64,000 nucleotides of DNA from a virus (taxonomy: Duplodnaviria; Caudoviricetes). Each line of letters opens with the position of its first letter. Positions within the stretch are counted from its first letter, which is position 1. The position numbers and the translations under genes are program-made. The DNA lies in IMG/VR virus record IMGVR_UViG_3300027415_000005, positions 2,504 through 66,503 of that record; one strand, given 5' to 3'. This document shows, one piece after another, positions 10,031-28,201 of the stretch. The notes below the pieces were generated by a model. The model had not been told where the DNA came from, ran no database searches, and saw nothing but the letters and a program-made list of their open reading frames with translations.

Positions 10031-11638
10031 TCAGCGCGACACGCTCACCATCTTGCCGAGCGGGACGATGGTCGCGGTGCCCTGAATCCTGCCGCCCTGA
10101 TTGAGCCGATAGCCAAGATCGGCCACGCCAGGCGTGTTGGTCCCCACAGCGAAATCGATCGTGGCGCTTCCGCCCTGAGTGCTCGACTTCTGCGTGACGA
10201 CCAGCGGGCCCGCCCCAGTGTTCGTCAGGAGGAACTCTTCATCGCGCACAAACCCGCCCACGCCCTGGATGACACCCTCAAGAACCAGATGGATCGAGGC
10301 AGAGCGGAACGGCGGCACCGTGACGTGGTAGGCATAAGCGTAGTTCGTCGAGCTGGACGTATCGATCGCTACCGTGTCCGCCCGATTGAGGAAGCCATAC
10401 TCGTCAGCGAACGCCGTGCGGTTGTCCTGCAATGACACCGCCCCCGTGACGGTGTTTTGCCCGACGACGATGTTATTGGCGCCCGGATCCAGCTTGATCG
10501 GGAAGCCGGAGATCGAGCTGAAGTTGTTACCGGTGATTACTGCGCCAGAGGCGCCGGGACCCGCAAACCACAGGCCGGTGGGGCACCCGGCGAACTCGTT
10601 CCCAACGATCGAGATGTTGCCGAAAACTCCGGTGGTGCCGCCGGCGACCCGCTCAAACTTCATGCAGGCGGTGCCGCTGTTCTCGATCGAGTTGCCCGAG
10701 AACTGGAAATCCTGCGTCGCCGTGCCATCCGGCAGCTTCATGTGCCAGCCGATGTCGCCGCCCAGCCCCTTGAAGCCGAGCACCTTGAGGCCGCCGCCGC
10801 TTTCGTAAGAGACGAGATCGCCGGTCTTCGTGAAATTGTCGACCTTGACACCGAGCCACGTCCAGTCGCCGGCGTCCGAGTTGGCAATGTTGCGCGTGCG
10901 AATACCGATGTTCTTCGAGCCATCCACCGAGACGTTGTCGAGCTTGCCGGTGACGTTCGATTGGATGTCGATGCCCGTATCGAAGCCGATGATACGGGAG
11001 TCGCGCAGAACCGGCGATGAGCCCTGCTCGCCGGCGCCCATCTGAACGCCGACGCTGCCCAGCCCGTTGATGCCGACGAAGGTCAGCGGCAGGTTGTAGA
11101 GGCCCGAATAGTTTCCGATGAGCGTGGCGCACGCGCCGGCCGAGACCTTGCACTTCAGTCCCAGGGTCGCGCCGGCCCCGGACCACTGCTGCCCATTGCC
11201 GAGCGTCACCCCAGACCCGATGAGATAGCCAGGATGGCTGTCGAGGGTGAGTGATCCCCCGTCCTGCCCAGGCGTTTTTACGGCCGCGTTTGCGGCTCGC
11301 AGGGCAGCGGCATCGTCCGTGACTCCATCGCCGGTGACGGAGTAAGTAGCGGCCCTGCCAGCGTTCGGCGGGAACACGCTCTGCGCAAGAGGTCGCGCGG
11401 CGAACCCGGAAGCAGTCGGCGCAAGGCTCAGTCCGGAAAGAGGGCAGGCCCCGCCCGGCAGGCACACAATCCCGCCCTTCGTTTGTAGGGCCGTGGAGCC
11501 GTGCAGCGTGATGCTGTCCGCCTCCGGACGATACAGATCGACGGAGGGATATCGCGCAGACTTGCTCGCGTCCCAAGCCAATGCATGGCTCGACACTGCG
11601 GAGAAGAGCAGCGCCGGCACAACTAGCCTATGCATCAT
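10031..11638 (-). CDS. Right-handed beta-helix (pectate-lyase-3-like) depolymerase/tailspike with N-terminal signal peptide
   Basis: GDGVTDDAAAL motif, Asn/Gly-rich beta repeats; MHRLVVPALLFSAVSSHALA. Confidence 0.75.
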   Translation of the reverse strand: MMHRLVVPALLFSAVSSHALAWDASKSARYPSVDLYRPEADSITLHGSTALQTKGGIVCLPGGACPLSGLSLAPTASGFAARPLAQSVFPPNAGRAATYSVTGDGVTDDAAALRAANAAVKTPGQDGGSLTLDSHPGYLIGSGVTLGNGQQWSGAGATLGLKCKVSAGACATLIGNYSGLYNLPLTFVGINGLGSVGVQMGAGEQGSSPVLRDSRIIGFDTGIDIQSNVTGKLDNVSVDGSKNIGIRTRNIANSDAGDWTWLGVKVDNFTKTGDLVSYESGGGLKVLGFKGLGGDIGWHMKLPDGTATQDFQFSGNSIENSGTACMKFERVAGGTTGVFGNISIVGNEFAGCPTGLWFAGPGASGAVITGNNFSSISGFPIKLDPGANNIVVGQNTVTGAVSLQDNRTAFADEYGFLNRADTVAIDTSSSTNYAYAYHVTVPPFRSASIHLVLEGVIQGVGGFVRDEEFLLTNTGAGPLVVTQKSSTQGGSATIDFAVGTNTPGVADLGYRLNQGGRIQGTATIVPLGKMVSVSR

Positions 11639-11672
11639 CGTATCTCCAGAAAACCAGCTGCGTTCGGTAGCG

Positions 11673-12125
11673 TCACTTGAAGTAGATCGTGTATGGCTTG
11701 CCGGCGGTGCCGCCGATTATTGTCACGATGCCGGTCGGAACCCGCGTGTCGTAAGTCACGGTCGCCCCGGGCGCGAGCATGATGGTCCCGACCCCGTTCA
11801 GCACCGCAGGGCGGTTGAAAGCGAAGCCGACGGGCGTGGTCGCGTCCGGGTTGTGGATCTGGAGAAAACTGCGGGTCGCACTCGCCTCGACCACGTTCTG
11901 CGACGTGTTCGCCGCGATTATCGTCCCAGAGGCGTCGGTGGTCGGCGCCGGCGAAGCGACCGAGACAGCATTCGATGTGCCCGGTGCTGTCTGGTCGATC
12001 CCGATCGAGCCAGAAATGGACCAGGGAGACGTGCCCTGGTCGACGGTAAATTTCGGCTGTTGCTGCGCGTCAGCAGCCACAGTCAGGCAGGCAAGCGCCG
12101 TCAGCGCGAGGATGAGCTTGCGCAT
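11673..12125 (-). CDS. Signal-peptide-bearing protein, paralog of the upstream gene's C-terminal domain
   Basis: MRKLILALTALACLTVAADA-QQ; TRSFLQIHN..ILAPG.TV.YD.RVPT. Confidence 0.7.
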   Translation of the reverse strand: MRKLILALTALACLTVAADAQQQPKFTVDQGTSPWSISGSIGIDQTAPGTSNAVSVASPAPTTDASGTIIAANTSQNVVEASATRSFLQIHNPDATTPVGFAFNRPAVLNGVGTIMLAPGATVTYDTRVPTGIVTIIGGTAGKPYTIYFK

Positions 12126-12165
12126 GGATAGATTCCGATTTTGCAGGGGAGAGGTGGCCGGGGTG

Positions 12166-13449
12166 CTAGCCGCTCGTGACGAAGCAGGTGGTGCCGCTCG
12201 TCGAAAAGACGTTGAGTGGCGCGGTCGGCACCTTCCTGTCGTACCGGACGCTCTGGCCAGGCGCGAGGATGTGGCCCACGGCGGCGGTTGCTGCAGCTCC
12301 CCAACGGTAGGCCATCGGGTTCGGCCCGGTATTCGTGATCTCGATGAACTGGCGGGTCGGGTTGGCCGCCGCGGCCACGACATTCGCCCCAGCGGCGATC
12401 GGCGCCCCGCCATTGTCCGCCGTGATCATCGATCCAGCGACCAGGGCCCGAACAGCCTCGAGCTTGGACTCCGTCGCTGCCCCGTCCGGCAGAGGCAGAG
12501 CCGCCGCTGAGATCGGCTGAGTGACGGAGGATCCATCAACCTGAAGGCCGCCGTCCGCCGTCAGCGCGGATGGAAGCCGGTCGCGGATTGCGGTCAGGAG
12601 CGTGGCGAGCCCGGTGATCGACGCGAGCAGCCGGGCCAGCCGAGCGATGACCGAGCCGTCGGCGGCGTCTGACCCGGGATCATCGTCTCCGGGTGCACCG
12701 ATGCCCGTCGCGATCGTCGCGAGGGCGGTATTCGTGGTGTCCTGGCGAGCGGCAGTCGAGGCGCCGTCCGGCAGCGACGAATAGGGCGAGATGGATGCGG
12801 TACTGGGCGGCGCGGCCAGCTTCGCGCCCGTCGTGACGTTGAACCAGTAGTTTGAGATCGGATCGCCGGCGTCGCCGTCCGTCACTACGAAATGATCGAG
12901 GTAGTCTCCGGACGAGAAGCCGGTCCCGTCCGCGGTCGCGCGCCACGTCGAGCGGGAGATCACCAACCCGCTGTCGTAGTCCGGTCGGGCGCCAGCACCG
13001 GGCGGCGAACCTGCATTGCCGGCCACGTCCGTCCAGGTGATCGTGCCTCCGCTGTCCACCCGGATGAAGCGGACCCCGGTGTCGTCGGCCCAGATGGTTT
13101 CCGAGCGCTGCGCTTTGACCGCGTCGCGGATCTCGGTCAGGCGCGTGATTCCAGTGTCCTGCTTGCTCTCGCGAGCGGCGTCCGGCGGGAGATCGTTGAT
13201 CCCGTCGTCATACTGGATCACCAGCGGATCCGCCGGCACCATGCCATTCGTGTTGAACGACAGCGTGACGACGGAACCCGAGACGTTGGAGGCGACGAGG
13301 TCGGGGACGATTGGGCTGTAGATGAGCTGCCCGGTCCTGGCGTTCGCGACGCCGAACAGGCGCCGGAGCTCGAAGTTGGGCGTGCCCGAGAAGTCGAGCG
13401 TCCGGTTGGCCGGGTCGAACACCGGGCGGGTGGCGATGGGCTTCTTCAT
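12166..13449 (-). CDS. Putative tail fibre/appendage protein (427 aa)
   Basis: ATG 13449 (MKKPIATRP); position in the tail module; beta-rich with helical linkers. Confidence 0.65.
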   Translation of the reverse strand: MKKPIATRPVFDPANRTLDFSGTPNFELRRLFGVANARTGQLIYSPIVPDLVASNVSGSVVTLSFNTNGMVPADPLVIQYDDGINDLPPDAARESKQDTGITRLTEIRDAVKAQRSETIWADDTGVRFIRVDSGGTITWTDVAGNAGSPPGAGARPDYDSGLVISRSTWRATADGTGFSSGDYLDHFVVTDGDAGDPISNYWFNVTTGAKLAAPPSTASISPYSSLPDGASTAARQDTTNTALATIATGIGAPGDDDPGSDAADGSVIARLARLLASITGLATLLTAIRDRLPSALTADGGLQVDGSSVTQPISAAALPLPDGAATESKLEAVRALVAGSMITADNGGAPIAAGANVVAAAANPTRQFIEITNTGPNPMAYRWGAAATAAVGHILAPGQSVRYDRKVPTAPLNVFSTSGTTCFVTSG

Positions 13450-13460
13450 CTGACCGTCCC

Positions 13461-14006
13461 TCAACCCAGCAGGAGTGCGCTGGCGGCGTAGAATTTCTTG
13501 GCGTCGGCAATGGCCGCGGCCATGTCCTGGCGGATGATCGCCTCGCGGGCGTCGGTGTAGGAGGCCGCATCCGGCACGCTGACATCGACGATGATGCTCT
13601 GCTCGAGCACAGAGACGTCGAGCACAGTGTCTCCCGGAGCGCCTTGGCCGGGGCCGATCACCTGCACGGCACCGGTAACGTAGGTGCGCCGATCTCCGGG
13701 CACTGGGACGCGATAGAGCGACCAGATCACGCTCTGCCCGAGCAGCCTGCGCGTCTCGGCGGGCGTGAACTGCCGAACGAGCTCCGTCTTGTCCGGTCCG
13801 ACGATCAGCGCGAGCCGATCGCTGTCGAAGGCATCCGAGGTCGTAGAGACGATTCGACCCTTCGCCCAATCGAGTGAGACGACGAAAGCCTCCCCCGCGG
13901 CGAGTTGGAGCGGTAGGCGATTGCCCCCGTCCGTCGTGTGTAGGCGAATGGTCAGCGTGAGAGAGTCCCCTGCAACGATCTGCAGGGGAACGACGGCGGG
14001 CTGCAT
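13461..14006 (-). CDS. Tail adaptor-like Ig-fold protein (BppU-N/LtfC-like)
   Basis: P...L.IVAGDSL.L...TGAVQV pattern. Confidence 0.5.
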   Translation of the reverse strand: MQPAVVPLQIVAGDSLTLTIRLHTTDGGNRLPLQLAAGEAFVVSLDWAKGRIVSTTSDAFDSDRLALIVGPDKTELVRQFTPAETRRLLGQSVIWSLYRVPVPGDRRTYVTGAVQVIGPGQGAPGDTVLDVSVLEQSIIVDVSVPDAASYTDAREAIIRQDMAAAIADAKKFYAASALLLG

Positions 14007-14018: not shown

Positions 14019-14429
14019 TCAGGCGTCGGGCGTGATCGCGAGCAAGCCCTTGTTCAACCATGGCGTGCCGGCATCCGGCGGCGGCTCCGTCGGGAGCATG
14101 CCCCGCAGCTTGCCCGGAGTGGTCAGCATGTCGACGATGGCCGCGGCGGTGAGCTCCTGAGCCTGCTGCACCACGAGGCGGGCCACGGATTGCACCATGG
14201 CGGCGGTGGCGACCCGGGGGCTGTCCTCGTCGGGTTCGGGGGTTGTCGCCAGTGCCTCGCCGAGGTTCGGCCGCGCGAGGAGGTCGGCGATCGTCTTCGA
14301 GAGCAGCGCCTCGGCCTCATTCTGGAATCCGAGCGGGAACGGCACCACCACCTCCACGAGGTAGGGCTCGATCCGCGGCACGAGCGCCACGGACGGCGCC
14401 GGCAAGACGTTGGCAAGGCCAGCGGCCAT
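14019..14429 (-). CDS. Tail-associated protein
   Basis: Ends in LPTEPPP..G..W.N.G motif. Confidence 0.6.
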   Translation of the reverse strand: MAAGLANVLPAPSVALVPRIEPYLVEVVVPFPLGFQNEAEALLSKTIADLLARPNLGEALATTPEPDEDSPRVATAAMVQSVARLVVQQAQELTAAAIVDMLTTPGKLRGMLPTEPPPDAGTPWLNKGLLAITPDA

Positions 14430-14430
14430 C

Positions 14431-14787
14431 TCAGTCCTCCAGGGCTACGGTGCCGGTCAGGAACGGCACCGGGGCGCCGTCCGGCATCAGCAGGCGGATG
14501 CGGGTCGCGATGGGCTGCACGGCTCCCTCGAGTTCCTCCACACGCGCGGCGGAGACCGGGAAGCTGATCACGCCCGAGCGAGGGTCGATGCTCAGCAGGC
14601 GGTCGGGCGCGTCGAACTGCGTCCGGACCTCCTGTCCGGTGGGCCATTCGACCGTCCATTCGATCGTGACGCCCGGCACCGGCAGGCGCCGGACCTCGCC
14701 CGTGCGCGGATCACGACCATGAAGGATGACGCCGAGATACGCCGTCCCGCCGCGGGGGAATCGGAAGTCGTAAGGAGCCGGCCTCAT
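14431..14787 (-). CDS. Tail adaptor-like Ig-fold protein
   Basis: MRPAPYDFRFPRGGT...LTGTVALE; ATGA coupling with the upstream gene. Confidence 0.55.
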   Translation of the reverse strand: MRPAPYDFRFPRGGTAYLGVILHGRDPRTGEVRRLPVPGVTIEWTVEWPTGQEVRTQFDAPDRLLSIDPRSGVISFPVSAARVEELEGAVQPIATRIRLLMPDGAPVPFLTGTVALED

Positions 14788-16274
14788 GGCGTCACCGCGG
14801 GGATGCCGTTGTTGTTCCAACGCTTCCCTGACCCTGGCGGCGGCTCCGTCGGCAGGCTCGCCATCCAGGTCTCGTACCCGCTCTCCAGCATCCCGGCGAC
14901 GACGTCAGATGCCACCACCTCGCGCACGAACACCGCGCCATCGCAGACGAAGCTGTCGGCATCAGCGGCAAGTTGCGCCGATGTCCGCACATACCGGCCG
15001 CCGCCACCATCGCCGGCGAACTTGCGGCCGAGGAGCTCGACGACCTGAACCCCGGCCGGGATGACGGCATAGGCAGCATCGCCTTTCGATCCGAAGGTGA
15101 GCTTGCTGGGCGTGCCGGCCTCGCTCTCCAGCACCTGAAGACGAGCCATGAGATCGGCAGATTCCAGCGCCGCGAGCCGCGCCTCGAAGTTCGCGATCGG
15201 GGGCGCCAGGACGAACGCCCCGGTCACGTCTTCGACGCTGAGCACCTCAACGTCGGTCAGGGCGTCCGGCCCATACATCGCAACGATGGGCACTATGAAC
15301 CGGGCAGATGGAGGAGCCTGGAAGGCTGCACCGAGGCCGGCCGATCGAGCGATCAGCGCCTCACATTCCTGGCGGCCGTTGGCAGTCACCAGCGACGGAT
15401 AGGTCCGGACCGGCACGACCGCGCCCAGCACCCGAAGAGACTGGTCGAGGTAGAGGATCCCGCAGACCACGGCATCCCCCGTCGGATCCGCCGGATTGCT
15501 ACGACGTTGGACCACGTAGCGGCTGCGATACAGACGCCCGGGCTCCAGAGGGTAGGCGTCGCGCGCGGCTACGATGCCCGGCCCGGACACACGAACGACC
15601 GGGCCGTTATCACCAGTCGCCAGCATCTGCGGCGGCAGGAACGGTAGGAGCGGGCGGGGTCCGCCGAGGATCGCGGGATTGGCCGTGAAGGTGTAGCGCA
15701 GCGGCGCAGTCCCTGGGCGCCCCGCCGCGGACAGCAGGTCGAACCGCTGGCCGGCGATCAGCGACTGGAGCGCCGTGACAGCGTCCGAGAGAGCCTTGTC
15801 CTGCTTGGCGCCGCCCGAATTGATCAGTGCCTCCAGATCCGACACCGCGTCGGCCAGAGCCTGCGCCTGTGCCTGGATCGCATCAGAGCGCGCCTTCTGC
15901 TCAGCCGCGTCGCCGCTCGTGCGGGCCGTCGTCTCAGCGTTCAGCGCCTCCCGCAGCGAATCCCCGAGGTCGCTGATCGCCCGGCGAATTGGCTGGATCG
16001 CCGTGGCGATCGCATCGTTGCGGGCATTCGCCTCGGCGTTGATGCCATCCTGCCGGGCGCGTCCCTCCGCCTGATCACCGTTGGCACGATCCTGTGCGAG
16101 GCCCGTGTCCGCCGCTTGGCGAGCGCGAGCCTCAGCGTTGACCGCATCCTGCGTGTTCGCGAGGGCCTGCTGCAGGTCAGCGATCCTAGACGCCGCCGTA
16201 TCGACGGCATCACACACCGCCTGAAGGCTGGTGTAGAACGATGCTGGGCTGCTCGGATCTGGCCGTGCGACCAT
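14784..16274 (-). CDS. Tail fibre-like protein (coiled coil plus carbohydrate-binding-like beta domain)
   Basis: Ala/Gln heptad repeats (EA.AR..AD) then a beta-rich domain. Confidence 0.65.
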   Translation of the reverse strand: MVARPDPSSPASFYTSLQAVCDAVDTAASRIADLQQALANTQDAVNAEARARQAADTGLAQDRANGDQAEGRARQDGINAEANARNDAIATAIQPIRRAISDLGDSLREALNAETTARTSGDAAEQKARSDAIQAQAQALADAVSDLEALINSGGAKQDKALSDAVTALQSLIAGQRFDLLSAAGRPGTAPLRYTFTANPAILGGPRPLLPFLPPQMLATGDNGPVVRVSGPGIVAARDAYPLEPGRLYRSRYVVQRRSNPADPTGDAVVCGILYLDQSLRVLGAVVPVRTYPSLVTANGRQECEALIARSAGLGAAFQAPPSARFIVPIVAMYGPDALTDVEVLSVEDVTGAFVLAPPIANFEARLAALESADLMARLQVLESEAGTPSKLTFGSKGDAAYAVIPAGVQVVELLGRKFAGDGGGGRYVRTSAQLAADADSFVCDGAVFVREVVASDVVAGMLESGYETWMASLPTEPPPGSGKRWNNNGIPAVTP

Positions 16275-16303: not shown

Positions 16304-16996
16304 TCAGACGAAGGCCTCGATGAGATCGAGGGTCACGTCCGAGAGCGGCGAAGTGGTCATGTCGAAAGCCGCCGTGTCGCCGTCTGCGAGTCGCATCAGG
16401 CAGCGAGGGGCATCGAAGGACACCGGGGTGCCGGCGCCGTAATCGGCTCGGAGCCACGGGCGGACGGCGATATCGACGACACCGCTTGGCCCCGGATCCG
16501 AAACCGGGCTGACGATCACGTGCAGACGGTCACCGATCGACAGGTACTGCCCCCGCTTCACCGTTCCGCCGCGGGCCTTGCTGATCCGGATCGTCGTCGC
16601 GTTCATTGCCGCATCGGCCGCGAGAGCGAAACTGATCGCACCGTTTGTGTCCGGGTTGACCGAGAAGCCTGGGCTGACCGCTGCGTTGCGCGCGGCTACG
16701 TCCGGGGTGATCGGCTGCCCCGTGATCGGGAAGACGTTCCAGGGCTGGCCCCGATAATCGTAGGGCCCGATCAGGAACGGTGTGCTCTGACCGGCAAGTC
16801 CCGCGATGAAGCCTCGCGCCTCGAGGTAATCGTCATCGTCGAGTAGGTGGAACGTCATCTTGGCGCGCCAGCGGCTCGTCGGGCTCGCCACGAATTGCTG
16901 CGCACCCTGAAATGACTGGCCGCCGCTGCGGGCAGAGTTCTGCAGGCTCCAGTTCTCTGTCGAGCACCGGAGTCGCGTCGGGAACAGCTCGGCCAT
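16304..16996 (-). CDS. Distal tail (Dit)-like protein
   Basis: SGGQSFQG..Q.V....RWRA.M.F...PWLR....G....F..P.CLMRL. Confidence 0.65.
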   Translation of the reverse strand: MAELFPTRLRCSTENWSLQNSARSGGQSFQGAQQFVASPTSRWRAKMTFHLLDDDDYLEARGFIAGLAGQSTPFLIGPYDYRGQPWNVFPITGQPITPDVAARNAAVSPGFSVNPDTNGAISFALAADAAMNATTIRISKARGGTVKRGQYLSIGDRLHVIVSPVSDPGPSGVVDIAVRPWLRADYGAGTPVSFDAPRCLMRLADGDTAAFDMTTSPLSDVTLDLIEAFV

Positions 16997-18462
16997 CAGT
17001 TATAGGTGTCCGGCAGTGGCGGGCGTTGACCTTCCTCGGACGGATCCCAGGCGTAGGCCGAAGCGTCGAGGCTGATCAGATCGAACTTCACGCCGGTGAG
17101 CGCATTGCCGGCCATCAGGATTGAGCCGCGCATGATCGCGAAGGTCGTGTTGATACCGAAGGACGGCAGATTCAGGATCACGGTCGGCTCGCCGAATGCC
17201 GGCAGGGCGGAGGGCGACAGGCGCAGACCGGTGAGCCGGAACCGCGGGTTGCCCTTCGCCATCGCGATCTTCGCGAGTTGCCGCGACTGGCGATGCGAAG
17301 GCGCTCGGACGAAGCTATTCTCTGTCTCGATTACGCCCTGGATCGTTTGGGCTGCGACGTCATCCCAAGGGTCACCCTCGGTCGGCTGATAGTCGTGGAA
17401 GGGCGAGAGGTAGGTGTGCTTGATCCGCGTGAAGGTGTTGTAGGCCTCGTCACCCTCCTCGAGCTGATCCCAGCCGAAGATCATGCTCTCGTCGATGGTG
17501 AAGGTCGGCGCCTGCCAGCGGCCGCCCCGGACGGCCACCAAACCGCCAGCGTCTTGGTAGAGCTCACCGTCCATCGCCGCGAGGAGGCGACCCAGCACGT
17601 CGGATCGCTGCTCGGAATAGTCGTAGCTGCCCCAAGACCGGTAGCGCATCTCGGAGGTGGCGCCGTTCGGATCTGGCGTGATCAGCGGCACCATCTGATC
17701 GCAGACATCTGCGAGATCCCGGAAGCTCTGGAGGTTGATCTCCGCGAGCGCCAGGCCGTAGCCGCTCTCGTGCGTCAGGTAGTCGAGCAGCAAGATCGCG
17801 GCGTTGTCCGTGTAGGCGTAGCCACCCGTCCGCGGGTCGTAAGAGGGCGCGCCAGCCACCAGCAGCCGAACGTCTGGCGCGCCTTCGGGGAAAACTTGCG
17901 TCCCCTTCCGCAGAGGGTTCGCCACCGTCACCGTGTAGCAAAGCCCGTTAAGCTGCATACTCGCGTTCCAGTAGGGCAGCTTCAGCAGCGCGGCAGAGGC
18001 CGCCTGATTGTCGGCCCCGTTATGGGCCTCAATCGCCACCTTCCCCTGATAGGCGCTGTCCGGAACGATCCCGCCGACCTGACCGGTCAGGCTCGTTTTC
18101 ACGTCGCCGAAGTAGTACTGCAGGATGTTGACCTGACCCACACAGTGGATCGCCCCGCGATAGAGCGTTCGGATCTTGTCGTCGTCCCCGCCCTCCATCT
18201 TCACCGTTTCGAGGGCGAAGATCACGCCGCCCATCATGCCTTGGCCGAGCACACGGCGGCGCGGCGCCACGGCCTGCCGGACCGTGATCTGGGCGTTGTT
18301 CTGCTTCTCGGCCCCGAGGAGCGCCTGGGCGCCGTACTGCAAGCCCAGAGCGCCGACGGTCAGCGCGGTGTAGCCGACGATCTCGCCCGCCGTGATGCCG
18401 GCGACGATGATCTCTCCCGCGAGCGCCTGCCCGAGGATAGCCGCTCCGACCGCCGCCGGCAT
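16996..18462 (-). CDS. Tail tip / baseplate hub protein (488 aa)
   Basis: RRRVLGQ..MGG, YTDNAA..LLDYL, LL.AMDG, WQAP motifs. Confidence 0.8.
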   Translation of the reverse strand: MPAAVGAAILGQALAGEIIVAGITAGEIVGYTALTVGALGLQYGAQALLGAEKQNNAQITVRQAVAPRRRVLGQGMMGGVIFALETVKMEGGDDDKIRTLYRGAIHCVGQVNILQYYFGDVKTSLTGQVGGIVPDSAYQGKVAIEAHNGADNQAASAALLKLPYWNASMQLNGLCYTVTVANPLRKGTQVFPEGAPDVRLLVAGAPSYDPRTGGYAYTDNAAILLLDYLTHESGYGLALAEINLQSFRDLADVCDQMVPLITPDPNGATSEMRYRSWGSYDYSEQRSDVLGRLLAAMDGELYQDAGGLVAVRGGRWQAPTFTIDESMIFGWDQLEEGDEAYNTFTRIKHTYLSPFHDYQPTEGDPWDDVAAQTIQGVIETENSFVRAPSHRQSRQLAKIAMAKGNPRFRLTGLRLSPSALPAFGEPTVILNLPSFGINTTFAIMRGSILMAGNALTGVKFDLISLDASAYAWDPSEEGQRPPLPDTYN

Positions 18463-18869
18463 CAGACGCTCCAGGCCACGACGGTCGGGTACTGATCGAC
18501 CGCGATGCCCTCGGGGCTCTTCACCGCCCAGCCGATGCGGCAGCGGACGGCGAACACAGGCCCGACCACCGGGTGCTCGACGAGGCCGACGTCGCCCGGC
18601 CGCGGCGCATCCGTCGTCGCGAAGCCGCACCCGGCCATCAGCTTGCGCGCCATCGCCTCGAAGCCGCCGAGGCGCCGGACGTGCCGCATCGCGCCGAGAG
18701 CCGTCCGGTAGCGACCGCGGAGGCTCGCCGCAGGGTCGACGCCGCGGGTCTTCCGACACCAGTCCGCCATGAACAGCGAGCAATCGATCTCGCCCCAGAC
18801 GAACGTCGCCCCGGCGCCGGCGCGCAAGAAGGCGCTCAAGTCTCGCTCTCGGGGATCTCGGGATTCCAA
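18462..18869 (-). CDS. NlpC/P60-like (DUF6950) tail protein
   Basis: FVWG..DC..FMADW...GVDPA..LRGRY. Confidence 0.8.
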   Translation of the reverse strand: MESRDPRERDLSAFLRAGAGATFVWGEIDCSLFMADWCRKTRGVDPAASLRGRYRTALGAMRHVRRLGGFEAMARKLMAGCGFATTDAPRPGDVGLVEHPVVGPVFAVRCRIGWAVKSPEGIAVDQYPTVVAWSV

Positions 18870-19420: not shown

Positions 19421-22400
19421 CAGCTGACACGGCCGAAGCGGCGCTGAGCAACAGCCTGCCGCTGCACCATCGTCCGGTCACGGGCGCTGTTGTTCATCTG
19501 CAGCGCCTGGAAGATCGAGGCCTGAACCTGTCCTTGCGTGAGCGAAGAGCCACGAAGATCGAGATTCCAAGTGTCGCCGGCGCCCTGGGGCGCAGGCGTG
19601 TTCACATTCGCTGCCGGCACGGGCGGAACCGGGCCAGAGATCTGCGGCATGGCCACGAACCCGCCATCGGCGTAGCCGCGCAGCCCGCTGATCCCGTCGA
19701 AGAAGCTCCGCCCGTAGCTCTTCACCACGTGCGCCGGCATCACATACTCGCCAGCATGGACGATGCCGGCCGGCTGGTACTTCCCGCCGTCGCCCGTGTA
19801 ACCGCCCTCGGCAAACCCGAAGAGCTTGCTGAGCGGCCCGCCACCGCTCTTGAACAACGAGCCCACCAGCGAGTCGAGGACACCGCCCAGGAGCCTGTCG
19901 CTGATCCTGCTAAGCGCGCTGCTGAAGGCCTTGGCCGCGTCACCACCATGCGACAGCGCCGTGGCGAAGTCGGTGGCCGCGCTGGTGAGGGTGGACCGAG
20001 CGTCCGTCAGGTACTGGTTCTGCCGAGACTGGTCGATCACCGCGACGGCGGCCGGCGAAGTGGTATCGCCCACCGTGGACCGGGCGCGGGCGAAGGCGCT
20101 CTGATCGTAACGGTCGCGCCCGAGCTGCTCCCGGTCGAAGCCGATGTCACTGGCGAACTGCGTCAGCCGCACCTGCTGCGCCGCGGTCGCCGTCTGCTGA
20201 GCCAGTCCCTTCACCGAGGCGGCCAGCGCGTCATTCGCCGGCACGCCCGCGTCGAGGAGGGCGTTGTAGCGCCGGGACGCCTCGGCCGCAGCCTCAAGCG
20301 CCAGCCCGTTCTTCCCATAATTCTGGGTCATGTTCTGGAGCTGCTGCTGCTGATCGCGCAGCGCCCGCTGGTACTGGTCCTGCTCGCGGATCTGCGCCCC
20401 GGTGGACGGGTCACCCATCTGGCCGGCCCGCCGGAGCACGTCGGCGGCATAGGCTTGGTTCGCCGCCGGGCTCTGGCTGCCATAGTAGTTCTGGATCGCC
20501 TTGTTCAGGTCGCCGCCGGCCTGATCCAGCTTCATTGACAGCACGCCCGCGATGCCGGCGGCCCCCTGGCTGGGGTCGGTGCGATCGAACGTCGGCGGCA
20601 GGTAGCCCAGACGAACAGCTTCCCGGGCCGTACCAACCGTGACCTGACCGAGGCCATAGGCGGTCGATGCCGGCAATCCGGTGCGGGGATCGATGACCTT
20701 GGTCTGCCCGATGTTCGGGTTGCCGCTCGACTCCTTGTCCGCGATGCCGGCGATGATGTTGGCCGGGATCCGCCCGAACTGCTGGGCCGCGCCGATGATC
20801 TGCTGCTGCACCGCCGCCGACATGCGCGAGAAGGCGCCACCGATCTGATTCTGCTGGAGGGTGGTGTTCTTCTCCAGGTTCTGGAACAGAAGCTGCCGCT
20901 CGGTCTCGATCGACTGCATCTGCTTCTCGAACGCGGACTGATCCGTGTTCGTGGAGGCGTTGCGGAGGGCGTCGAGGCGCTTGTTGGCCGCGTTCTCGTT
21001 GATCTGGGCGGCAGTCTGCCCCTCCTGCGTGAAGCCGATGGTGCGCTGCTGGAACTGCGCGGCCCGGATCGCATCGGCATAGGACGAGCCGCCAGCCTCC
21101 ATGTCCGCGCGAAGCTGCTTGGCCTGGGCGAGCAGCCCCTCCATCGCGCGCCGGGCGTTGCCTTGCTCGTCAAAAGGGATCTTCGAGAGGTTCGTGGCGA
21201 TGTCCTTGGCCTGATCCTCGATCCGCTTGAGCTGCTCGCTGAAGGGGTTGAGCGACTTGACGATCTCACCGATGCGCAGGCTGGTCTGGTTCGCCTGGGC
21301 CTGCGCGCTCGCCGCCTGAAGCTTCCGCTGCTGCTCGAGCAGCTTTTCGAGCTCCGACTGAAGGGCCGGTCGGGTGCTGCTGAACCGCTCCAGGAAGCCC
21401 GGCGGAGTGGCCAGCACCTTCTGCAGATCCGCGATCTTGGTCTCCAGATCGCCGCCGGTGACGAAGTGGTCGACGGCCTGGCCGACCCGGTCGAAGGCGT
21501 TGGAGATGGTAGCGCCGGCCGCAGCGGTCACTCGCGCCCAGCCGCTCGTCAGCTCCGTCGCGCTGGTGAGCCCCGTCCGGTAGGCGTCGAGGAGCGCCTT
21601 CTGCGCGCCCAGCCGATCACCCTGCGCGGCGAGGCGCTGGATGTTCTCCCGGGTGGTGTCGTTCAGGACCGCGAGCTGCTTGTCGAGGATGTCGGCGCCG
21701 CGGGCCGGATCCGCGAATGCCTCAGCGAGTGCCTTGGTCGCGGAGGGCACGTCCTGACCCGTGGTCGCCGCATAGTCCTTCACTGACCCGATCAGGCCAC
21801 CGTACACCTCGGTGCCGATCTTGCCCGTGGCGGCGAACTCGCCCGCCATCTCCCGTGCCGACCGGACCGAGACATTCCCAGCGGCGGCGCTGGCCGACGC
21901 GATGGCGTTGATCTGGCCGACAGTGGCCCCCGAGGCGCGACCAACGCCGGTGAGGTTCTGCGCCAGCGCCATCTGCGTCGAGGCGTAGGACTGGAATGCA
22001 GCCACGCCAGCCAGCACCGCCGTCGTCACGACACCGAACGCGCCCCCGACGAGCCCGATCCGCGTCGCAAGGCTGGACGCGGCCTCACCCGCCTGGGTGA
22101 AGGCGCCCCTGATGCTCGCTCCGCCCGGGCCACCGAACACCTGCGCGATCTGCGGTCCCTGCTGGAACGCAACCGTCGACAGGTTGCTGCCGCTGCCGAT
22201 CGAGGAGACGATGTCGCCCGCCTGATAGGCCAGGTTCTGGACCTGATCGGCACGGAGTCGGCGGTTCTCGTTCGCAGCGGCAGGGGCGCCGCCTCCACCG
22301 AGCGCGCCAAGGCGCCGGCTGGCCTCGATGTTCTCCAGCACCTTGGCGCCCTGGTCGCCGAGCCCGCGCCACGCCGCCTGAATGTCCCGGGCCGATCGCT

Positions 22401-22752
22401 GTGCTGCCGTCGCGACCGTCCCGTAGCGCTCCTGCAGCATTGTGATGGTGCGGGCGTGCTCCGTCGCCGAGATGGCAGCCTGCTCGAAGGCGCGATCAAC
22501 CGTCCGCGTGGCTCGCTCAAGCATCTGCTGCTGCCGAACCATCGGGTCGATCTTGGCCAACAGCCGGTCATAGGCGCCCGCGGCGCTCAGCGTGCGGCGG
22601 CTGGCGACCTCCGTCGTGACGCTGGCGGCCTCCGCGGCATCGCCCATGCGGGTCTGCGCGGCGGCAACAGCATCCGCATCGGAGCGCACCTTCTCGGCGC
22701 CCTCGGAGCGGTACTGCACCGTGATCCGGCGGATGGATTCGATTGTCGGCAT
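19420..22752 (-). CDS. Tape measure protein with lytic transglycosylase (SLT) domain
   Basis: 1110 aa, helical; QNLAYQ.GD..S...G...QQGPQI motif; KESSG.P...AYGLGQ...A..NY. Confidence 0.92.
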
Positions 22753-22796: not shown

Positions 22797-23018
22797 ATGA
22801 AGTGGGTCCTGCTGTGGGTCACGTTGGCCGGGAACGGCACGGTCACGAGCGGGTCGGCTGAGTTCGACACCGTGGATGCCTGTTTCGCGGCCCAGCGGGC
22901 ATACGGCGGGCTGACCTTCGACGTGGGGCAAAGCCGGCTGGCCTCGCCGTCCACGGAGTCGACCTGCGTCAACACCGGGACAGGCGAGAAGCGCAGCGCG
23001 ATCAAGCCTCGGTCGTAG
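22797..23018 (+). CDS. Small exported-type moron protein, antisense to the tail operon
   Basis: GAGGGAG Shine-Dalgarno; [12 protein letters not shown]; two Cys. Confidence 0.7.
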
Positions 23019-23433
23019 AGGCGGGCTTCTTGGCGTGCTTCCGGAAGAGGCCGCGGAGGCCCTTCACGTCCGTCATGGGGGTCTGGTTCACGATCTCATT
23101 CGGGCCACGCGGGACCCGCTGGCCGAGGTACTCCGCATCCATCTCGCGCATCACGGCGAGGAACCAGGCGTAATCGTCTGGGTCCACGATGCCGTGGTCG
23201 CGAGCGAAGGTTCTGATGGATGTCGCTGGGATCCGGCCCTCGGCGCCAAAGCCCAACTGCCGGTCTGTGGTAAGCTCCCAGAAGGCGTGCCAGAGGAACT
23301 CGGCGCCGGAGATCAGGAGCGGGCGTTCCAAGTATTCCTCTGGCAGCGGGTGCCCTTCAGCCTCTAACCGGCGGATGTGCTTTGCTTGCGGCGCCCACTC
23401 GGTTTGCCACCGGAGGCAGGCGAGGAGTTTCCC
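23002..23433 (-). CDS. Tail assembly chaperone, frameshifted C-terminal segment (lambda T-like)
   Basis: The -1 frame is open from the slippery site to 23002 (KLLACLRWQTEW...AFWELTTDRQLGFG). Confidence 0.8.
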   Translation of the reverse strand, partial: GKLLACLRWQTEWAPQAKHIRRLEAEGHPLPEEYLERPLLISGAEFLWHAFWELTTDRQLGFGAEGRIPATSIRTFARDHGIVDPDDYAWFLAVMREMDAEYLGQRVPRGPNEIVNQTPMTDVKGLRGLFRKHAKKPASTTEA

Positions 23434-23849
23434 ACCACGGCCTCGACCCGGTCCGACTCGGCCTCCTCGACCTCGCCGGCGGCGAAGGCGACAGCCTCAC
23501 GAAACGGCCGGAGGTCCGGATCCAGCAGGAGATCCATCGCCTGCTCCTTCGAGAACGGGAGCGGCTTGTCGTTGTCGTCGGTCAGCCCATCCCAGTCCAC
23601 CAGGATGTGCTCGACCATGCCGCGGAGCAGGAGGGTGTCGCGAGCCTTCTGCTTGAGCGCGCCGTCGCGCCGGCCGCCCTCACGCTGATCGCGCGGCACG
23701 GCAGCCACCTCGCGCGCCATGAACGCGGCATAGTCGGAGTTGCTGAAGCCGCGGACCCGAAGGCGGAGATCGCCCATGCCCGGTATGTCCTTGACCCAAG
23801 CCCCCTGCTCGGCGCGAGTCGAATTGATCTTGAGGCTTGAAAGTTTCAT
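23364..23849 (-). CDS. Tail assembly chaperone (lambda G-like)
   Basis: Between the major tail and tape measure genes; LVDWDGL..D....LPFS. Confidence 0.85.
   Translation of the reverse strand: MKLSSLKINSTRAEQGAWVKDIPGMGDLRLRVRGFSNSDYAAFMAREVAAVPRDQREGGRRDGALKQKARDTLLLRGMVEHILVDWDGLTDDNDKPLPFSKEQAMDLLLDPDLRPFREAVAFAAGEVEEAESDRVEAVVGNSSPASGGKPSGRRKQSTSAG
23427..23433 (-). other. -1 programmed ribosomal frameshift site G GGA AAC
   Basis: X XXY YYZ heptamer in the correct phase; joins the two chaperone frames. Confidence 0.85.
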
Positions 23850-23922: not shown

Positions 23923-24408
23923 TCAGGTCGGGTCGACCTCCACGATCGCGGAGTCGATTCCGAGCGTGAAGGCGCGGCGAATTACATTGTCCGAGCTGCC
24001 GACGTTACCGCGCTTCGACATCACCAGGGCGCGGAAGTAGTCGATGCCGTCGGTGCCGGTTGGGGTCAGGCGATCCGGGTAGACCACCTTGAACGCGAAC
24101 TTGTTATTGGTCGCCTCTGCCGCGATCAGAGCCTTCTGGCCAGCATCGGTAGCGACACGAGCCACGGTGAGGGCGAGATCGCCCGCGTCGCGGATGCCCT
24201 TCGCCTTGCGCTGACGGCCGTCGTTGAGCGAGGCGAAGTTGACGGTGCTCGACTGATCACCGAACTCGCCGAGGCTCTCGACCATTCCGACCTCGACCCA
24301 GCTACCGTCGGGAATTGCTTCATATTCGGTCTGTGTGTCCACGGTCGGCAGAACAGCAGGCCCGATGAAGATTTTCGAACCAGTTGCGGTGGTGATATCG
24401 CCTGCCAT
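23923..24408 (-). CDS. Major tail tube protein
   Basis: W.EVG.VE.LGEFGD....V.F..L..GR..K.KG..DAG. Confidence 0.85.
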   Translation of the reverse strand: MAGDITTATGSKIFIGPAVLPTVDTQTEYEAIPDGSWVEVGMVESLGEFGDQSSTVNFASLNDGRQRKAKGIRDAGDLALTVARVATDAGQKALIAAEATNNKFAFKVVYPDRLTPTGTDGIDYFRALVMSKRGNVGSSDNVIRRAFTLGIDSAIVEVDPT

Positions 24409-24479: not shown

Positions 24480-24941
24480 TCAGGCGTAGAAGCCCGCGTC
24501 GTCGGTGAAATAGAAGTGGTAAGGCACGCTGAACGACACCGGGAAATAGTTACCCTGATCGTTGCGATCGTCGATGATCGGCGTTGACGGCACCCAGGTC
24601 TGCACGCCGTCGAACTTCTTGCTGCGGAAGATTGCAGCCAGCATGTCCGTGAGCCGAAGCCCATCCTGCACGCCGAGTCCGCGCTGCGCGTTCACGATCA
24701 GGCGGATCGTGCCCTCCTCCCGGTAGTGCCGGGCGGCCAGATCCATCTGCGTGACGTTTGCGATCGGGTATTGCACTTCGGCGAACACGCTGCCGTCCTC
24801 GGGCACGTCACCCTGGAGGTTGATCCCGAAGACCGGGCAGCCCGGCAGGTTCACCGCGGCGCGCGCCAGGATCATCTCCGGCGAGCCCCACAGGGTATCG
24901 AGCCGATGCTCAACGGCATCGACGACGGCCTTTTGCGGCAT
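24480..24941 (-). CDS. Tail terminator-like protein
   Basis: Position; G.I.L.V...RG.G motif. Confidence 0.7.
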   Translation of the reverse strand: MPQKAVVDAVEHRLDTLWGSPEMILARAAVNLPGCPVFGINLQGDVPEDGSVFAEVQYPIANVTQMDLAARHYREEGTIRLIVNAQRGLGVQDGLRLTDMLAAIFRSKKFDGVQTWVPSTPIIDDRNDQGNYFPVSFSVPYHFYFTDDAGFYA

Positions 24942-25220: not shown

Positions 25221-25222
25221 GG

Positions 25223-25927
25223 CTACCTGCCCGGGTCGATGATGATGGCCGGCTGACGGGTCAGCCAGTCGGAATGCCGGTCTGGCCGTCCGCCGCGGAC
25301 GCGCCGTGCGAGCGCTGCGGCCGAAGCCGTCTGCGCCCACGCCCCAACAGCGCCGGCCGGCAGGGAGCGGTAGCCGAAGCCGACATAGGCGACGTTGCCG
25401 TAGCGCCGCTTCGCCAGGACCGCGACGCCCTCATAGACACCATCCGGCGCCTGCGGGCTGAGGCCGCGCTCGATCTTCCTCGCATATGGAGTAGCGTTGA
25501 CGACGGCGTACTGCTCGGCCGGCGGCGGGTTGTACGGATCGGTGAACTCGACACCGTCCGCGAACCACACGTGGCTCTCGTTGTAGCGAGTGCCCGCCGC
25601 CTTCGCCCGGCTACCCACCGGCGAATGGATGATGAGTTGCTCGTCCACGTACTGGATCACGTCGAGCAGCAGGTGGAATTCGAAGGCGACGATGCTGTTC
25701 GCCTTCACCCCGGACAGGTCGGTGCGCTGGGCGCCGTCCACGAAGGTGTCATGCGTCGGGACGTAGCCGAGGGCGGCCTTGTTGGTCGCCTCGGCCTCCG
25801 CCAGTGCCTGCTGCGCTGTAGCCCGAAGCTGCTGCGCCTGCGCCTCGTCGGACAGATCCTCTCTCAGGATTAGCGCGATGTCCCTCTCAATCGGGTCGAT
25901 CTTGGTCGAGGTGCGAGCCGTCGCCAT
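25223..25927 (-). CDS. Neck/tail completion protein (HK97 gp10-like)
   Basis: SPV.S......Y..SH; N.TPYARKIERG.S.QAP.GV. Confidence 0.75.
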   Translation of the reverse strand: MATARTSTKIDPIERDIALILREDLSDEAQAQQLRATAQQALAEAEATNKAALGYVPTHDTFVDGAQRTDLSGVKANSIVAFEFHLLLDVIQYVDEQLIIHSPVGSRAKAAGTRYNESHVWFADGVEFTDPYNPPPAEQYAVVNATPYARKIERGLSPQAPDGVYEGVAVLAKRRYGNVAYVGFGYRSLPAGAVGAWAQTASAAALARRVRGGRPDRHSDWLTRQPAIIIDPGR

Positions 25928-26568
25928 CAGGCGCCGCTCGCCTGGATGTCGTAGGCCAGTAACTCGCCCCCAACCCGGTGAGTGCTGTCGTCCACCGCTT
26001 CGACGGTGAGGGTGCGCCCACGAATGACGAGTCGGTCCGTCGAACCGTTCTTGATCGGCACCGGGAAAGCTGCAGCCGCGACGTCCGGCGCGAACAGGAA
26101 CACCCGGCGGTTGCCCTGGATCACGCCGCTGGCGAGTTCGTCGGGCTGGAAGCCAGTGACGATGGCCCGGACCTGCGCGTCAATCGGTGCGCCCTGGCCG
26201 AGGCGCCGCAGCGTGATCATCTCGCCGCGGCCGTCCATCAGATCCTCGTAGAGGTCCGCCGTCAGCGCGCTCTGCACCTCGATATCGAGATCGTCCTCGG
26301 TCCGGGCAGGCGTCTTCACGGTGATGATCTGGAGCACCGCGTCGCCCATCCGCACGCGGTCGCTGGTCTTCAGCGTGATCGCGAGCTCGCTGTTGCGGAC
26401 CGTCAGCCGGCCGCTCTTGCCCCAGAGCTGAAGGCCGCCGTAGCTGATCGTCGTCGGGCGCTCGAAGCTGTACGCGGCCCACTGCCAGTCGCCGTAGGCC
26501 TGATACTCTCCAGCGACGCGGCGCAAGAACTGCACCTGCTGGTTCATGGGGCCGGCAGCAGCGGGCAT
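25927..26568 (-). CDS. Head-closure/head-tail joining protein
   Basis: C-terminal half GE.ITLRR...VRA.V.GF.P.EL..G..QG.RRV. Confidence 0.65.
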   Translation of the reverse strand: MPAAAGPMNQQVQFLRRVAGEYQAYGDWQWAAYSFERPTTISYGGLQLWGKSGRLTVRNSELAITLKTSDRVRMGDAVLQIITVKTPARTEDDLDIEVQSALTADLYEDLMDGRGEMITLRRLGQGAPIDAQVRAIVTGFQPDELASGVIQGNRRVFLFAPDVAAAAFPVPIKNGSTDRLVIRGRTLTVEAVDDSTHRVGGELLAYDIQASGA

Positions 26569-27770
26569 CAGCGGTTCACCGCGTAGACTGCGACCGGGAT
26601 GGAATAGGAGGCGCCGATCCCGAGCGCCGGGACGCTCAACACCGCCCGGAAGGTGTTCGCCGCCGTCGGCAGCGCGTGATGGACGGCGTAGCCCTCAGGC
26701 AGGCCGGCCGAGGTGGTCGGGTAGACCTCGAGGACGTCGGTAGTGAGCACGCCCGAGCAGGCGATGCCGGTCTTCGAGCGGATCCCGGATGAGACCGAGA
26801 TCAGCATCGTCTCGCCGATTGTGGCGTTGCAGACGAAGACCGAGGCCTTCGGGCCGGCCGGACCGGTCAGCCCTTGGGGGCCTTGCGGTCCGGCGTCGCC
26901 TTTCGGGCCCGTGGCGCCGGTTTGACCCGTGGCGCCCGTGTCGCCTTTCGGGCCGGCCGCTCCGGTTGCGCCGGCGGATCCAGCAGGGCCTGCAGGTCCA
27001 GTGCTGCCCTGTGCGCCTGCGGGGCCGGCGGGTCCAGCCGGGCCAGTTGCACCAGCAGGGCCGACATCGCCTTGCGGACCCTTGGCGCCGGTCGCGCCGG
27101 TTGCTCCTGTGGCACCCGTGTCTCCCTTCGGGCCTACTGCTCCCGCAGCACCCGCCGCTCCTGTCGCTCCCACCTGTCCAGGAACGCCCTGGCTCCCTTG
27201 AGCGCCAGCCGGACCCATAGGGCCGGTCGCTCCATCCGCGCCTGCATCTCCAGCAGGGCCAGCCGGGCCTTGAAGCCCGCGATCGCCCTGAGGGCCTCGC
27301 GCGCCATCTGCGCCCGCTGCGCCGGCGTCACCCTTCGGACCAGCATCGCCCTTGGCTCCTACAGCACCCGCAGGCCCTGCCGGGCCAGTGGCTCCGGGAT
27401 CCCCCTTCGGACCAGCCGCGCCGTTCGCGCCGGGGCTTCCCGCCGGGCCCGCTGGACCGGCGTCTCCGCGCGGGCCGGGGGCACCAGCAGGTCCAGCCAC
27501 ACCATCGACGCCGTCACGGCCAGGAGGCCCAGCCGGGCCGACAGGTCCAGGGCCACCGTCTGCGCCTCGAGCGCCTGCTGCGCCCACATCGCCAGCGGGG
27601 CCGGGCGCGCCGGGCTGTCCTGCGTCACCGGGGTCTCCCTTCGGACCGGGCGGACCGGCGGGACCTACGGGGCCCTGGACGCCCTTGAAGCTGTAGCCGA
27701 TCGGCCGAGCATCGGCGGTACTGGCGATGCCGAGCGCGAGACACAGCGCGATTGAGAGCAGCGCACGCAT
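26568..27770 (-). CDS. Collagen-like protein with signal peptide (400 aa; 93 Gly-X-Y triplets)
   Basis: ATG 27770, MRALLSIALCLALGIASTADA; uninterrupted G-X-Y from residue 30; 92-aa C-terminal beta domain. Confidence 0.9.
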   Translation of the reverse strand: MRALLSIALCLALGIASTADARPIGYSFKGVQGPVGPAGPPGPKGDPGDAGQPGAPGPAGDVGAAGARGADGGPGPVGPAGPPGRDGVDGVAGPAGAPGPRGDAGPAGPAGSPGANGAAGPKGDPGATGPAGPAGAVGAKGDAGPKGDAGAAGADGARGPQGDRGLQGPAGPAGDAGADGATGPMGPAGAQGSQGVPGQVGATGAAGAAGAVGPKGDTGATGATGATGAKGPQGDVGPAGATGPAGPAGPAGAQGSTGPAGPAGSAGATGAAGPKGDTGATGQTGATGPKGDAGPQGPQGLTGPAGPKASVFVCNATIGETMLISVSSGIRSKTGIACSGVLTTDVLEVYPTTSAGLPEGYAVHHALPTAANTFRAVLSVPALGIGASYSIPVAVYAVNR

Positions 27771-28201
27771 CAGCCGCCGCTCACGCCGTAGTGCATCTCG
27801 GGCGTGCAGGTCGCGCCGGGCGCGCCCACGGTCATCGCCGAAATGAAGTTGGGCCGGCTCGTGCCCATCGTGGCCTCGGTCCGCGCGAGGTAGAGCACCC
27901 CAGTGTCCTCGGTGACGGCGTCGCCCGCGCTCATCGTGCCGAGCAGCCGGATGTCCACGTCGCAGGGGTTCACGATGCGGTAGGTGGTGGCTCCGACCGG
28001 GCGGTTGATCGGAAAGCTCTTGGGGGTCGGGCCGATGTCCTTCAGCCGTATCGGCGCCGAGTGCAGCCGGCGGAACGGCATGGTCATCGCCGGCAGCGGG
28101 TTGTCGACCGTGTAGCCGCCCGGCGGTCCCTTGTAGGGGATCTCCTGGGCCATCAGCAGCGGCACCAGCAGCGCAATGGTGACGGCTTTCCACGTCCTCA
28201 T
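27770..28201 (-). CDS. Signal-peptide-bearing hypothetical (143 aa)
   Basis: MRTWKAVTIALLVPLLMA-QE; stop overlaps the collagen gene start. Confidence 0.7.
   Translation of the reverse strand: MRTWKAVTIALLVPLLMAQEIPYKGPPGGYTVDNPLPAMTMPFRRLHSAPIRLKDIGPTPKSFPINRPVGATTYRIVNPCDVDIRLLGTMSAGDAVTEDTGVLYLARTEATMGTSRPNFISAMTVGAPGATCTPEMHYGVSGG

Follow-up and report, generated by a model that had tools for sequence, protein, structure and literature searches.

Tailed phages are assembled, in the textbook account, wholly in the cytoplasm. Here we describe four genes of a phage late operon whose products begin with predicted Sec (general secretory) signal peptides, followed by recognisable fibre, spike and tip modules. 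The stretch analysed, called the window below, has 64,000 nucleotides and corresponds to bases 2504-66503 of a 66.5-kb virus record (IMGVR_UViG_3300027415_000005; G+C about 68%). We name the genes A (10031-11638), B (11673-12125), C (26568-27770) and D (27770-28201), all on the minus strand, as an earlier note on this DNA had correctly placed them. The source organisms of the named homologues are Methylobacterium and Methylorubrum, and the phage is a siphovirus-type Methylobacterium prophage. The earlier note considered such exported late proteins undescribed; indeed, in a full-text literature search no paper turned up that presents fibre or spike proteins with signal peptides as a trait of tailed phages.

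The described proteins nearest to A and C are the tail fibre p062 of Sinorhizobium phage phiLM21 and the fibres of two Xanthomonas phages, OP2 (ORF38) and CP2. They resemble A and C in their distal parts and in their modular build of conserved N-terminus, stalk and exchangeable tip, but they have N-terminal virion-attachment domains, no leader, and none of the Cys pairs of the signal-bearing forms. A collagen-like protein on a phage head is known from SPP1, whose trimeric head decoration protein gp12 is encoded beside the major capsid gene and reversibly binds finished capsids, which shows that a capsid can, physically, take up a collagen-like protein late, after its assembly. Unlike C, gp12 is short and cytoplasmic, and has neither leader nor tip domain. 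Jellyroll-like domains are found in XepA (XkdY) of the Bacillus subtilis element PBSX and in YomS of SPbeta, with which D aligns at Z scores of 5.6 and 6.6, respectively, the level of any jellyroll. XepA belongs to a Gram-positive host, is not known to have a classical signal peptide, has no sequence relation to D, and is without fibre ancestry, collagen stalk or tip exchange. Among bacterial proteins, WceF of Pantoea stewartii is an exported trimeric right-handed beta-helix of the phage-tailspike type that acts on the cell's own exopolysaccharide (EPS) (PMC7949094). WceF (and Erwinia AmsF) would be the working model for A if A were a free enzyme; however, WceF is chromosomal, lies in an EPS biosynthesis cluster and has a twin-arginine (Tat) signal, whereas A is phage-encoded, lies in a late operon and has a Sec-type leader without twin arginine. 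Finally, the cultured tailed phage phi46:3 of Cellulophaga, a Bacteroidota host, encodes consecutive large proteins, gp079-gp082 (GenBank KC821622), that all have classical signal peptides and are annotated 'structural protein', an annotation made by similarity to phage phi8:3. What the window adds is a host genus that can be cultured, a cassette in the head-neck block whose tips are exchanged, a link between cysteines and leader in two families, and the independence of two cassettes.

Signal peptides were called by inspection and with a crude signal-peptide scorer, the criteria being a basic n-region, an h-region of 7-15 residues and small residues at positions -3 and -1 of the c-region. On inspection, each of the four leaders has a basic n-region, a hydrophobic core of 10-14 residues and small residues at -3 and -1. 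In A the predicted signal peptide is MMHRLVVPALLFSAVSSHALA (residues 1-21; 11576-11638, minus strand), cut before W22 to give a mature start WD; in B it is MRKLILALTALACLTVAADA (residues 1-20; 12066-12125, minus strand), cut before Q21 with mature start QQQ; in C, MRALLSIALCLALGIASTADA (residues 1-21; 27708-27770, minus strand), cut before R22 with mature start RP; and in D, MRTWKAVTIALLVPLLMA (residues 1-18; 28148-28201, minus strand), cut before Q19 with mature start QE. The N-termini quoted in the earlier note agree with these for B, C and D, and fall one Met short for A, which starts MMHRL. No lipobox (L-[AS]-[GA]-C) is present in the four leaders, the residues at -3 to -1 before the leader Cys of B (ALAC) and C (IALC) being unfit for one, nor is there a Tat motif (S/T-R-R-x-F-L-K). 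The starts are supported in several ways: GGAGA lies 5 nt ahead of the ATG of A and GAGG ahead of that of D, as Shine-Dalgarno sites; the start of C overlaps the stop codon of D (TGATG); and the first 30 codons have a coding-type G+C content at third codon positions (GC3) of 0.67-0.90. When the scorer was run over all GC3-supported open reading frames (ORFs) of the 64-kb window, the only plausible genes flagged were A, B, D and the lysis-side gene at 8369-9082; C was missed through the GC3 filter alone, owing to its Gly codons.

These leaders are conserved. A signal peptide was found in all 27 aligned homologues of D and in 38 of 40 overall; of the two that scored without one, the first is a truncated gene call and the second (P0014) keeps the hydrophobic core but has a Glu in its n-region that fails the scorer. 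Within the D family, mean pairwise identity falls from 72% in the core to 30% in the signal region, so the leader keeps its chemistry while its sequence drifts, as is usual for signal peptides that work. The initial Met of the conserved core of D is Ala or Leu in 8 homologues and is thus not a conserved internal or hidden start. In C, the leader and the mature N-terminus RP(V/I)GYS are kept in 9 of 9 complete loci. In the A family, the window protein and five (P0192-P0196) of the seven relatives used in the cysteine comparison below carry diverged signal peptides, the two without a leader being P0197 and phiLM21 p062; another relative, the short P0198, bears a signal peptide but lacks the Cys pairs. 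The leader of B is shared by its closest relatives (P0043, P0112, P0123, P0134 and P0185). This conservation excludes chance and wrong starts, and the export signals proposed in the earlier note thus hold up as real and conserved. Judged by their sequences, A to D are probably true Sec (signal peptidase I) secretory precursors.

Behind the leader, A (535 residues) has a module of about 100 residues that contains Cys59/Cys65, then a right-handed beta-helix and a C-terminal beta domain. Residues 276-535 match phrog_38233, 'tail fiber protein' (E 1e-86), at profile positions 634-895 of 896 only, and the match to Pfam Beta_helix (PF13229), at 24.1 bits, is slightly below the cut-off of 25.9. Residues 128-535 are 43% identical to the C-terminal part (about 400 residues) of the 888-residue phiLM21 p062. 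No PHROG or Pfam match, and no N-terminal virion-attachment domain, was found in the leader and the N-terminal module; the mature form of this module reappears on a different, 596-residue signal-bearing protein elsewhere in locus L029. One relative, P0193, has fibre-shaft segments after its leader. In the window A is the last gene ahead of the lysis cassette, directly upstream of the muramidase gene, while A-like proteins elsewhere are encoded after the baseplate and fibre genes of myovirus-type prophages, in one case preceded by another signal-bearing fibre-like protein. A sequence search of the PDB with A gave no useful hit and did not bring up WceF, and a pattern search of IMG/VR for A relatives found none. 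A is probably a glycan-cutting spike.

In the 89-nt gap between A and the muramidase gene (9942-10030) lies a perfect palindrome of 12 nt, GCGCCCGGGCGC, which is not followed by a T-run. An ISL3-family transposase lies directly downstream of the A-like gene of a myovirus-type Methylobacterium prophage in two loci (L013, 9989-11344; L014, 9884-11239). In L015 (8001-16199), about ten fibre-like genes follow the baseplate genes; two have signal peptides, and one 566-residue product of the run matches a 'head decoration' family, phrog_20658.

B (150 residues) is hardly longer than a fibre tip: a single fibre-repeat motif, IDQT.PGT.N, stands between its leader and a 90-residue jellyroll tip, which is a paralogue of the C-terminal 90 residues of the fibre encoded just upstream at 12166-13452 (BLASTP, 34% over 76 residues, E 4e-6). 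This 428-residue fibre (minus strand) has no leader and starts MKKPIATRP, its frame being taken from a GC3 plot. The tip domain of B has 261 relatives detected with HMMER. The phage family of unknown function phrog_22789 is matched by 33 of the 42 B relatives sampled and by the closest B-like proteins of L029 and L030; B itself has no PHROG match at E 1e-3. The AlphaFold2 model of B (predicted local distance difference test score, pLDDT, 98 for residues 60-150) finds its best structural match in the receptor-binding domain of the phage PM2 spike P1 (Z 9.2), and the ESM Atlas clusters nearest to B are viral. The alignment of B with the Ena endospore-appendage subunit (DUF3992; Z 8.6), at or near the head of the structural matches, is within the range of chance jellyroll matches and has no counterpart in sequence. 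Sequence searches of the PDB with the B family gave nothing useful, and the IMG/VR pattern search for B relatives returned weak partial matches only. Leader-like N-termini occur in 26 of the top 150 B relatives; these 26 come from very different taxa, and 2 of them lie in phage structural regions; export of this domain thus appears to be recurrent. The pair formed by a leaderless fibre and then a signal-bearing B-like protein is kept just before the lysis genes in L029 and L030, whose tail modules are related to that of the window (the J-like protein is 75% identical). In L030 an extra signal-bearing protein of 148 residues (7924-8370) follows the B-like gene and weakly matches the C-terminus of the 'pectin lyase activity' family phrog_32881 (E 2e-5).

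C (400 residues) is a collagen-like fibre. Eight residues after the signal peptide begins a collagen-like triple-helix region (residues 30-308; 26847-27683, minus strand), which matches Pfam Collagen (PF01391) with E 1.2e-43 (147 bits, cut-off 27.2). Triplet counting gives 93 uninterrupted Gly-X-Y triplets, or about 80 nm if triple-helical, and the stalks of C relatives have 39-93. The 92-residue tip (26571-26846, minus strand; type 1) is exchangeable, as C relatives display three unrelated tip types behind one common N-terminus (leader and RPVGYSLK) and stalk. The tip of C is 33-41% identical to those of the two Xanthomonas phage proteins, OP2 ORF38 ('putative tail fiber'), which has a tail-fibre N-domain and whose gene follows a baseplate wedge gene, and the unannotated collagen-like ORF of CP2; both tip homologues are without a leader. 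Tip types 2 and 3 have no more than marginal matches among cultured phages (E about 1e-3). A search for a paralogue of the C tip in the fibres of the phage itself, in the window, and in those of G001 was negative. The CP2 fibre ORF (AB720064; our locus L011, 4080-5294, plus strand in the locus) is antisense to the annotated ORF4, which was probably called on the wrong strand.

D (143 residues) has 40 homologues, all from Methylobacterium or Methylorubrum where the source names an organism. A variable linker follows its signal peptide and leads to a conserved 100-residue jellyroll core with a near-invariant Cys80/Cys132 pair. The C-terminus (27770-27790, and in relatives) is a near-invariant MHYG-x-GGG right before the overlapping start of C. 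The AlphaFold2 model (pLDDT 88) finds generic jellyrolls (Z up to 7.5) and resembles many uncharacterised 100-residue Caudovirales proteins in BFVD; the D-family profile, run against PDB sequences, brought no match. The Ena subunit (DUF3992) was the top or near-top structural row for D, at Z 7.5 with a root-mean-square deviation of 8.6, which is in the chance-jellyroll range, and no sequence match accompanies it. An Ena-like or XepA-like identity of D was accordingly set aside as generic jellyroll similarity (Z up to 7.5). In one homologue of 158 residues (P0029), the initial two thirds of D run directly into the final 50 residues of the C tip; this reflects either a deletion that spans the entire collagen gene or an artefact of assembly. 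A common origin of D, B and the C tip, suggested by this fusion and by a resemblance of D to B noted by eye, was rejected, as profile comparisons of D with B, D with the C tip and B with the C tip were all negative (probability below 1%).

The proteins are therefore not the new class suggested by the earlier note. They are built from recognisable fibre, spike and tip modules with a leader at the N-terminus, and the leaderless relatives of A and C carry normal fibre N-domains at that place. By this comparison of sequences, A to D are export-adapted derivatives of phage receptor-binding proteins, in which a leader has taken the place of the usual attachment domain. The cysteines go with the leader. 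All six signal-bearing proteins compared in the A family have Cys163/170 and Cys325/352, which are replaced in the leaderless P0197 and phiLM21 p062; the Cys314/Cys338 pair of the C tip is found in 5 of 5 signal-bearing forms and is incomplete in the leaderless CP2 and OP2 proteins. Each of the three tip types of C has exactly two Cys, and three Cys pairs occur in another tail protein of L029 that bears a signal. The joint occurrence of Cys pairs and leader suggests that the proteins are adapted to oxidising surroundings. That they are exported by Sec in the late phase and then fold oxidatively in the periplasm is well supported and, in our judgement, likely; they most likely fold outside the cytoplasm.

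The earlier note had treated the four genes as one exported late-protein module. We found two independent cassettes instead, B-A and D-C. No A-like protein was found in five other D-C-bearing records, two of which are 100% complete, and the closest head relative of the window has a wholly different tail module, without any signal-bearing gene; both facts establish the independence. Each cassette consists of a small jellyroll protein plus a large fibre or spike, D-C lying in the head-neck block and B-A closing the tail block ahead of the lysis genes. D is always directly upstream of the collagen gene, whose start overlaps the D stop. The place of the pair is without exception somewhere between the major capsid gene and the tail terminator; at least four arrangements, involving two capsid families, were seen. 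In L003, L005, L006 and L019 it comes right after the phrog_10 capsid gene, ahead of the adaptor; in the window and L002 it comes after the adaptor; and in L018 it stands beside the tail terminator, with a lambda-E-type capsid (phrog_29). All D-C loci with enough flank are in a phage head-neck block, and none is in plain chromosome. In L006 (7191-10580), D-C is followed, upstream of the head-tail adaptor gene, by genes for a 105-residue protein and a 1020-residue protein with a FAD_oxidored domain (PF12831, E 3e-43), an enzyme that is odd company among head-neck genes.

Both cassettes are embedded in the late structural operon, as the earlier note had proposed, and translationally coupled to it. 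Intergenic gaps are of 34-40 nt or are replaced by TGATG overlaps of 1 nt, which link D with C, and C in turn with the neck gene that follows. Between 9500 and 29400, no sigma-70-like site was found, with the reservation that the scan used an E. coli-type consensus which alphaproteobacterial promoters may escape, and there is no minus-strand terminator-like site between genes. GC3 is 0.95 in D, like that of the adjacent head genes, and 0.81-0.82 in A and B, like that of the adjacent tail genes.

In the reading that we favour, with a probability of roughly 0.4, A to D are appendages that mature in the periplasm and join the particles at lysis, a destination and role that we infer. The genes would be transcribed late, together with the structural operon; the products would be exported by Sec and their leaders cleaved; trimerisation and disulfide formation would take place in the periplasm. 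In the last and most tentative step, holin and endolysin would breach the envelope, and the matured proteins would then meet the particles built in the cytoplasm and bind to them, forming accessory appendages at the head/neck and the tail end by which surface glycans of the host are recognised. Attachment to particles is favoured by the conserved N-terminus combined with a variable stalk and tip, by the shaft segments of P0193, by the constant positions of the cassettes and by their coupling to neck genes, and also by the leader-bearing phi46:3 proteins annotated 'structural protein'. As to the roles offered in the earlier note, the data favour decoration after lysis and EPS remodelling, whereas the coating of vesicles finds no support.

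Several points weigh against periplasmic maturation followed by attachment. To our knowledge there is no mechanism by which exported proteins join cytoplasmic particles. D (72% identity in the core) and the N-terminus of C are conserved across unrelated capsids, adaptors and tails, which would be difficult to explain if they docked at a specific site of the particle. In the A family, the leader of P0195 and P0196 passes directly into the beta-helix, and no docking domain lies between. Because the signal-bearing relatives of A are closely related to one another (55-78% identity), few independent events stand behind the link between cysteines and signal. Moreover, the leaderless fibres of the phage (the J-like, 496-residue and 428-residue proteins) could suffice for adsorption, and a rod of 80 nm is awkward inside a periplasm of about 25 nm. 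We consider it less likely than not that some tailed phages have a second, extracytoplasmic assembly compartment, in which Sec-exported receptor-binding appendages, in this case the collagen-like fibre of the head/neck and the spike proteins of the tail end, would be oxidised and trimerised in the periplasm and added when lysis proteins open the inner membrane.

In the main rival reading, which we hold to be only slightly less probable, the proteins would be exported late and never join particles, acting instead as free proteins on the envelope or matrix of the producing cell around lysis. A would then cut EPS, capsule or O-antigen, destroying receptors or helping release, B and C would bind and mask glycans, and D would be the partner of C; phage T5 Llp and viral neuraminidase are models for such protection of the progeny. 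The position of A directly upstream of the muramidase and lysis genes fits this, as do the reduction of P0195 and P0196 to leader plus beta-helix, that of B to little more than a tip domain, and the distribution of the cassettes, D-C being portable across unrelated virion types and A being absent from other D-C phages. There are precedents in WceF, an exported enzyme of tailspike fold that trims stewartan (PMC7949094), and in PBSX XepA, which is exported during phage development and is not in particles (PMC6834076). However, it is hard to see what a free periplasmic protein would gain from a long stalk that varies in length, tips that can be swapped and a conserved N-terminus, and the fibre-shaft segments behind the leader of P0193 also speak against this reading. 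Masking is a further difficulty. The B tips and fibre tips are 30-42% identical irrespective of pairing, without cognate matching, so that masking of 'the same receptor' is unsupported, and the tip of C has no paralogue among the fibres of the window or G001. Receptor masking by matched tips was rejected on these grounds, the B and fibre tips being old paralogues and the C tip having none in the window or in the G001 tail module.

Lysogenic-conversion genes (morons), that is, add-ons expressed from the prophage that give the host surface fibres or exclude other phages, seem improbable here. Signal-bearing accessory genes do occur in late operons (lambda lom and bor, HK97 gene 15), the collagen-like adhesin Lcl of Legionella provides a model for C-like surface fibres, D-C is a portable cassette at a head/tail mosaic boundary, and an alphaproteobacterial promoter may have escaped our sigma-70 scan. 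Nevertheless, neither cassette is flanked by a promoter- or terminator-like site, stop and start codons overlap those of flanking structural genes, and codon composition follows the neighbours (GC3 0.95 with the head genes for D, about 0.8 with the tail genes for A and B), all of which argues against classical morons; moreover, wherever the flank is long enough to tell, D-C sits among the head-neck genes of a phage rather than in plain chromosome, and the proteins derive from virion fibres. That the hydrophobic N-termini are not used as signals at all, and serve as helices for oligomerisation or docking of cytoplasmic virion parts, is very improbable: the leader of C is indeed more conserved than a signal peptide requires, but all four leaders have the canonical n/h/c architecture with AxA-type sites, that of D keeps this architecture in 38 of 40 homologues at 30% identity, Cys pairs co-occur with the leader, and the leaderless relatives have normal fibre N-domains instead.

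Conserved, functional-looking leaders on fibre- and spike-derived proteins within structural operons would imply one of two things, neither of them recognised so far: an extracytoplasmic last step of assembly, or a class of late proteins that are exported and act on surface glycans of the host at lysis. If true, each of these would change the prediction of receptor-binding proteins and depolymerases in prophages and the reading of virion proteomes, and would affect the expression of such proteins, which may need periplasmic, disulfide-forming conditions. The window offers a clean test system, with a culturable host genus, a 66.5-kb prophage record and two small cassettes with clear predictions of processing sites.

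The late operon that houses the cassettes runs along the minus strand, from the large terminase (33542-35380) through the portal (about 32118-33758), the protease (31054-32118), the phrog_10 major capsid protein (29551-30960), an unknown protein of 171 residues (29020-29535) and the head-tail adaptor Ad1 (28238-28843) to D and C. It continues with an FII-like neck protein (25927-26568), an unknown protein (25223-25927), the tail terminator (24480-24941), the major tail protein (23923-24408), the tail assembly chaperones (23364-23849 and 23002-23331), the tape measure (19420-22752), a tail protein (18836-19420), the J-like central fibre (16996-18783), the distal tail protein (16304-16996), the 496-residue protein (14784-16274) and three small genes (14431-14820, 14019-14429 and 13461-14006), which are followed by the 428-residue fibre and the B-A cassette. 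PHROG and Pfam scans gave no match for B, D or the 428-residue fibre, nor for the genes at 14784-16274, 13461-14006, 14019-14429 and 14431-14820, nor for the lysis-side ORFs 8124-8369 and 8369-9082.

The lysis cassette begins just downstream of A, also on the minus strand, with an endolysin (N-acetylmuramidase; 9162-9941) that matches Pfam Muramidase (PF11860, E 2.3e-44), and continues with genes for membrane proteins below 9162. The gene directly after the muramidase gene (8369-9082, minus strand) encodes a protein of 237 residues with a signal peptide, MNRIALAALALACVCSPALA, and several hydrophobic segments behind it. Over the last 165 residues it shares 96% identity with a 186-residue lysis-region protein of L030 that has a different N-terminus; the product may be a lysis-cassette membrane protein with a swapped N-terminus.

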